From Escherichia coli (GTDB lineage: Bacteria > Pseudomonadota > Gammaproteobacteria > Enterobacterales > Enterobacteriaceae): a DNA stretch of 333 bases. Below the pieces are notes generated by a model. That model was given only the letters and a program-made list of their open reading frames with translations. It was not told the DNA's origin and made no database searches. This document shows positions 256-333 of the stretch, piece by piece. Within the stretch, counting starts at the first letter, position 1, and each line of letters begins with the position of its first letter. The stretch lies in assembly GCF_003334765.1 (NCBI RefSeq), contig NZ_QOWT01000139.1; one strand, given 5' to 3'. The position numbers and the translations under genes were made by a program.

Positions 256-260
256 GAGGA
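256..260 (+). promoter_or_regulatory. Shine-Dalgarno sequence (GAGGA) for the cbeA GTG start
   Basis: GAGGA at 256-260 is complementary to the 16S rRNA 3' end; a 7-nt spacer (TTTTATC, 261-267) separates it from GTG 268. Confidence 0.65.
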
Positions 261-267
261 TTTTATC

Positions 268-333
268 GTGTCAGACACACTCCCCGGGACAACACTTCCC
301 GACGACAATCACGACCGCCCCTGGTGGGGGCTG
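268..333 (+). CDS. cbeA: Type IV toxin-antitoxin antitoxin CbeA (YeeU family), N-terminal 22 codons only; 3'-truncated by the window edge
   Basis: GTG at 268-270 is the first plausible start after the in-frame stop at 241-243 and sits 7 nt downstream of a GAGGA. Translation is (M)SDTLPGTTLPDDNHDRPWWGL, open to the window end. This matches the N-terminus of YeeU/CbeA as I recall it, including the N-terminal extension that the shorter paralogs YfjZ and YafW lack. The position immediately downstream of a yeeT-like gene fits the known yeeT-cbeA order. Confidence 0.85.
   Translation, partial: MSDTLPGTTLPDDNHDRPWWGL

Follow-up and report, generated by a model that had tools for sequence, protein, structure and literature searches.

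The CbtA/CbeA pair of Escherichia coli is a type IV toxin-antitoxin system, and its antitoxin has been studied in K-12, where CbeA counters CbtA toxicity and bundles FtsZ and MreB (PMC5624674, PMC5371832). The K-12 cbeA gene (b2004) lies on the cryptic prophage CP4-44 (NC_000913.3, 2077112) with yeeT upstream and cbtA downstream, and it starts with a GTG codon behind a 7-nt spacer. Two further K-12 genes, yfjZ on CP4-57 and yafW on CP4-6, belong to the Pfam family of CbeA and share its fold (PDB 2EA9, 2JN7). Both occupy the operon position of cbeA, flanked by a DUF987 gene upstream and a CbtA-family toxin gene downstream, and their Shine-Dalgarno (SD) sequences are similar to that of cbeA (-6.5 and -6.4 kcal/mol, respectively). 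Unlike cbeA, however, yfjZ and yafW start with ATG, lack the N-terminal tail of CbeA (14 alignment columns) and follow much shorter intergenic spacers. A set of YeeU-family genes from other Enterobacterales, for example Citrobacter, Trabulsiella and Klebsiella (L011-L014, L020, L024 and L026), resembles cbeA in that a non-ATG start, in this case TTG, is followed by a variable tail and then by the motif WWGL. The SDs of these TTG-start homologs (AAGGAG or AAGGAGG) are clearly stronger, with a median of -8.4 kcal/mol and a lowest value of -12.1 kcal/mol, whereas the GTG of cbeA has no compensating SD. More generally, GUG is the start codon of about 14% of E. coli genes (10.1101/063800). In these genes, as in cbeA, fMet-tRNA reads the start codon and an SD precedes it by 5-9 nt, and no feature was found that would distinguish cbeA from them. 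The GTG start of cbeA is already known in that it is present in public annotation, while the papers found to name the gene alongside a start codon or GTG say nothing on the cbeA start.

We analyzed a 333-nt stretch of E. coli DNA, referred to here as the window, whose identity is 100% to strain D8 (NZ_CP010151.1) and 96.4% to K-12 MG1655. Of 5,426 complete E. coli genomes, 4,809 contain sequence like the window, with 13,039 occurrences in total. On the plus strand, the window comprises the 3' end of yeeT, which encodes a DUF987 protein (last 63 codons and the stop TGA at 190-192; positions 1-192), the annotated 75-nt yeeT-cbeA intergenic region (193-267) and the first 22 codons of cbeA (268-333). 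The yeeT assignment follows from translation and from the RefSeq CDS at 2971-3192 of locus L001, which is 100% identical to the window, as well as from K-12 yeeT. The first 22 cbeA codons, the GTG and the 7-nt spacer are identical to those of K-12, and the neighboring genes are the same. The two loci differ in the SD (UGAGGA in the window and D8, UAAGGA in K-12), in the in-frame stop codon upstream of cbeA (TAA versus TAG) and by a 2-nt intergenic indel; the complete CbeA proteins of D8 and K-12 are 93% identical and differ at the C-terminal end.

For domain searches, full-length CbeA was taken from L001. The protein matched PF06154 (CbeA_antitoxin) with E = 6.9e-54 over residues 18-117, covering model positions 1-100 of 101, and it matched the solved YeeU structures 2INW (E = 3.6e-79) and 2H28 (E = 2.3e-78) in alignments that start at residue 1. 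The open reading frame directly 3' of cbeA (L001 3689-4066) matched PF06755 (CbtA_toxin, E = 5.5e-63), and NCBIfam contained no match for CbeA, YeeT or the protein encoded upstream of cbeA in alternative contexts. We identify the gene as cbeA (yeeU), which encodes the antitoxin in the CbtA/CbeA type IV pair carried by CP4-44-like E. coli islands. Contigs with E. coli- or Citrobacter-like cbeA also turned up in GTDB representatives labelled Collinsella, Lachnospiraceae, Arthrobacter and Chryseobacterium (L006, L007, L009, L010, L059 and L070), and their presence under these foreign labels is probably due to contamination or mis-binning.

In the frame of cbeA, a TAA stop codon at 241-243 is followed by eight codons (CCG ATT TTC TGT GAG GAT TTT ATC) and then by GTG at 268-270, from which the frame continues as TCA GAC ACA CTC and translates as (M)SDTLPGTTLPDDNHDRPWWGL. 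A sequence-only reading of this DNA had placed the TAA in frame with GTG268, and a reading-frame scan found its coordinates to be correct throughout; the span that it had singled out, 256-270 (GAGGATTTTATCGTG), contains the SD core, the 7-nt spacer and the start codon. The same reading had regarded GTG268 as the sole start ahead of the recognizable CbeA N-terminus, and this codon is indeed the only canonical in-frame start between 244 and 333. Near-cognate codons occur in frame within this interval at ATT247, at ATC265, which had been overlooked, and at CTG331, which lies past the conserved WW; from 271 to 330, neither a canonical nor a near-cognate codon is in frame. RefSeq starts the cbeA CDS on the GTG268 codon in D8, in two MG1655 records including NC_000913.3 (b2004), and in a locus that has another gene upstream. 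The constructs of PDB 2H28 and 2INW begin MSDTLPGTT, an N-terminus that simply follows the annotation. The Pfam CbeA domain starts with residue 18, which requires initiation to take place upstream of position 319.

Main initiation at some other codon, be it ATC265, ATT247 or one beyond the tail, is highly improbable. ATC265 (265-267) lies within the spacer and would use the same SD at a 4-nt spacing, and in an alternative upstream context the cbeA frame remains open for more than 40 codons upstream. Measured relative to AUG, however, AUC and AUU initiate at only 1-2%, compared with 10-100% for GUG and UUG (10.1101/063800). ATT247 additionally has a poor SD (-3.2 kcal/mol). The upstream ATG of the open-frame contexts is without an SD (+0.4) and lies in non-homologous sequence. 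Downstream of the tail, the next in-frame GTG is codon 26, and initiation there would remove the invariant WWGL.

The SD element UGAGGA at 255-260 forms 6 bp, one of them G-U, with the 3' end of 16S rRNA (...CCUCCUUA) at -6.0 kcal/mol, and is separated from GTG268 by the U-rich 7-nt spacer UUUUAUC (261-267). The UAAGGA of K-12 gives a duplex energy of -5.9 kcal/mol. This SD had previously been described as strong; it is present and well placed, but its strength is average when set against 19 neighboring island genes (median -6.4, range -0.3 to -10.7 kcal/mol), and as it is also weaker than the SDs of the TTG-start homologs, the description was rejected. A score at least as good is reached by about 9-11% of positions taken arbitrarily, or of NTG codons, from these loci. 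Folding of the intergenic region was no more stable than that of shuffled sequences (z = 0.07), and the mean probability of being unpaired was 0.41-0.47 across the SD and start, so that the site is partly accessible and no stable structure is predicted to mask initiation. A riboswitch or other structured RNA was also considered and rejected: no Rfam family reached threshold, and the sole match, to a eukaryotic snoRNA model, scored 19.7 bits where the gathering cutoff is 100 and is attributable to chance.

The codons following the GTG provide a comparative test of the start. Codons 2-18 (271-321, SDTLPGTTLPDDNHDRP) encode an N-terminal tail that is variable, specific to the clade and not part of the Pfam CbeA domain. 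The invariant motifs of the CbeA/YeeU domain begin with WWGL, encoded by codons 19-22 (322-333). A metagenome scan with the pattern TRAGGAYTTTATCNTGTCAGACAC, in which the first base of the start codon was left free, returned 120 loci. The free base was G in 119 of these and A, giving ATG, in one. Of the 108 metagenomic loci with enough flanking sequence, 100 retained an open reading frame of 100 aa or more from the start codon. Intact copies carried tails of 18, 17 or 13 residues, all in frame. Among 78 unique sequences WWGL was invariant, and W/x-G-L was conserved over 70 family loci; the CbeA tail is absent from YfjZ and YafW and is much more variable than the core. The ratio pN/pS was 0.42 for tail codons 5-18 (pS 0.29) and 0.17 for the core. 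By this pattern of substitution and length variation, the 17 residues that follow the GTG behave as coding sequence translated in the GTG268 frame. Polymorphism within the tail was seen at residues 6 (P/S/H), 10 (H/L/Y/P) and 15 (H/N/D), along with in-frame deletions of one and five codons. Separately, the remaining 8 of the 108 metagenomic cbeA copies (L086-L205) were broken soon after the start by a frameshift, premature stop or insertion, a sign that the antitoxin gene decays from time to time.

Substitutions at the start codon itself point in the same direction. ATG takes the place of GTG268 in locus L009, in the one metagenomic locus and in three complete E. coli genomes, and for one 31-nt haplotype in complete genomes there are 709 places with GTG versus 3 with ATG. 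RefSeq starts the CDS at the ATG allele, for example in E. coli CE0011b. These ATG alleles favor a role of the codon as initiator, since a change from GTG to ATG is silent at a start, while an internal change from V to M at precisely this codon would be an odd coincidence.

Of 119 related metagenomic loci, 58 have a stop codon as far upstream of the cbeA start as the TAA, and the other upstream contexts are without it. In 61 of the 119, a different gene, not yeeT, lies directly upstream of cbeA. Homology between the contexts breaks off approximately 25 nt before the GTG (about 243-244 in the window; also seen in L207 at 807-1500, L087 and L089), and the part that is shared includes the SD. In L207, the one annotated example, a 215-aa protein labelled as an "antitoxin of toxin-antitoxin stability system" is inserted between the DUF987 gene and cbeA. 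The shared stretch of about 25 nt, with its SD common to different upstream gene contexts, marks the initiation region that belongs to cbeA itself.

This arrangement bears on whether cbeA translation is coupled to that of an upstream reading frame, with ribosomes that finish yeeT or a 16-codon small ORF (sORF) re-initiating at GTG268. The sORF (MSRIIATTGPFLTDFL; 207-257 on the plus strand) starts 15 nt past the yeeT stop, and its TGA (255-257) overlaps the cbeA SD. Coupling would be helped by this geometry, in which the frame from ATG207 terminates within the SD, 10 nt upstream of the GTG, and the G-to-A difference of K-12 preserves both the stop of the sORF (as TAA) and the SD (as UAAGGA). 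However, an ATG-started sORF occurs in only 34 of 119 related loci, 24 yeeT-type loci being without the ATG and 61 having the different upstream gene; the SD of the sORF is weak (-3.9 kcal/mol), and 75 nt separate the yeeT stop from the GTG. In addition, the construct used for initiation-site mapping by INRI-seq, which carries a 30-nt 5' UTR, omits the sORF start, yet produced a peak at cbeA. No conserved stop-start coupling, meaning an upstream ORF that ends within a few nucleotides of the start, was found, and we consider re-initiation a very remote prospect for this gene. As a coupling device or a small gene in its own right, the sORF was rejected, being missing from most related loci and unannotated in K-12.

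Published data on initiation sites concern the K-12 gene. In INRI-seq, ribosomes stalled with retapamulin gave a peak at the K-12 cbeA start in four of five replicates, a weak signal barely over the threshold of 5 CPM (PMC9825163). Table S2 of that study lists 0, 5.8, 7.4, 8.0 and 8.1 CPM for the start at 2077112 and scores it TRUE, and no other cbeA site appears anywhere in the complete Table S3 (PMC9825163). INRI-seq is a cell-free method in which the construct has a 5' UTR of only 30 nt and, for cbeA, the K-12 allele; its assignment window of 12-18 nt makes GTG268 and ATC265 inseparable, a point in favor of the neighboring codon. In the Ribo-RET values of Meydan 2019, as tabulated in PMC9825163, the peak for cbeA is 0, and there is no cbeA entry in the supplements of either an N-terminomics study (TRAINSPOTTER) or a tetracycline TIS study; no in vivo evidence for the cbeA start was found across these Ribo-RET, N-terminomics and tetracycline TIS supplements. 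Operons of the CbtA/CbeA type have low transcription (PMC5371832), and the absence of cbeA from in vivo data sets is probably due to low expression.

Taken together, GTG268 is very probably the true initiation codon of cbeA. The assignment made in the sequence-only reading agrees with RefSeq, with the Pfam and PDB matches, with the comparative data and with the in vitro peak in K-12. It is annotation, conservation and coding signal together that make the case, as the SD by itself is only mildly above chance. We infer that GTG268 is used in vivo. Pairing of UGAGGA at 255-260 with the 3' end of 16S rRNA would position the 30S subunit, and fMet-tRNA would then read the GUG 7 nt downstream. The product would begin fMet-Ser-Asp-Thr-Leu, with the variable 17-residue tail preceding the conserved domain, and the mature N-terminus would probably be Ser2 after removal of Met, as expected from the specificity of methionine aminopeptidase. 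The combination of GUG with an average SD would be expected to give a moderate rate of initiation. GTG268 is an ordinary SD-led GUG start with nothing unusual about it; a dual-frame AUGUG/GUGUG initiation site of the type described in PMC9841429 is absent, the window having GUGUCA rather than GUGUG. A sound annotation of the cbeA start is useful for cloning, tagging or modelling CbeA and matters little otherwise.

The sequence-only reading had further proposed that non-ATG initiation may matter for the stoichiometry of antitoxin to toxin, and had suggested comparing the start codons of the cbeA, yfjZ and yafW orthologs. In that comparison, cbeA has GTG, and both yfjZ and yafW have ATG. A selective account would hold that the GTG is real and has been selected as a weak start, setting the level of CbeA relative to CbtA without transcriptional autoregulation. 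GTG is nearly fixed in the cbeA clade, as described above, non-ATG starts occur in at least two clades of the family, and GUG and UUG initiate at 10-100% of AUG, with GUG the less efficient of GUG and AUG (10.1101/063800). Translational set-points could also matter here, as neither toxin nor antitoxin autoregulates these operons (PMC5371832). The diversity of the start base was compared with that of 92 synonymous third positions in the 78 unique sequences. The start base had pi = 0.026, with 45% of the synonymous positions being equally or less diverse, and near-fixation of GTG can thus be attributed to common descent; selection for GTG is not a claim that can be made. Against the selective account there are also the ATG alleles at the cbeA start, which occur in intact loci, and the ATG starts of the paralogs. 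Further, CbeA is thought to stabilize FtsZ and MreB polymers rather than to bind the toxin CbtA directly (PMC5624674), so that a strict ratio of antitoxin to toxin would be less relevant than in type II systems. We consider selection of the GTG as a weak start unlikely, and a role of the GTG in antitoxin-to-toxin stoichiometry is unsupported.

Initiation per transcript also bears on this account. When INRI-seq peaks were divided by transcript abundance, the ratio was approximately 0.07 for cbeA, 0.065 for cbtA, 0.11 for yafW with its ATG and 1.5 for the toxin gene ykfI, values that were obtained in vitro with leaders cut to 30 nt and should be read as indicative only. The value for cbeA is close to that of cbtA and not far from that of yafW. 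Such ratios give no sign of a handicap for the GTG gene or of a consistent excess of antitoxin over toxin. The CbtA-family toxin genes that we examined have ATG starts and weak SDs of -2.9 to -4.3 kcal/mol (L001 3664-3691, L005 1545-1572, L003 1429-1456 and L004 1668-1695 on the minus strand). Despite such weak toxin SDs, INRI-seq gave 94-131 CPM for the toxin gene ykfI and 10-26 CPM for its antitoxin gene yafW.

A broader version of the dosage idea extends to the family as a whole. Inferred starts in 70 family loci of other Enterobacterales were ATG in 51, TTG in 14 and GTG in 5. It is conceivable, though decidedly doubtful, that the identity of the start codon in YeeU/CbeA genes is an evolved dosage knob for the antitoxin in operons without transcriptional autoregulation, with settings of GTG and an average SD in cbeA, TTG and a strong SD in the homologs from other genera, and ATG in yfjZ and yafW, and that the GTG of cbeA keeps CbeA low relative to FtsZ and MreB. 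If true, this would be a minor instance of tuning through the start codon in a type IV toxin-antitoxin system. The apparent TTG-start YeeU clade (L011-L014, L017, L019, L020, L024, L026, L031, L032, L034, L045 and L061) includes Mixta, Pectobacterium and others besides the genera named at the outset, with SDs of -8.3 to -12.1 kcal/mol, and in several of these loci TTG is the sole candidate start.

Finally, the yeeT-cbeA intergenic region was scanned for promoters and terminators. The plus strand gave neither a promoter nor a terminator match. On the minus strand there were two sigma-70-like promoter matches (274 to 247 and 243 to 216), each with 9 of 12 positions, compared with 0.3 expected from shuffled sequences, and one of the two overlaps the conserved SD and start region of cbeA.
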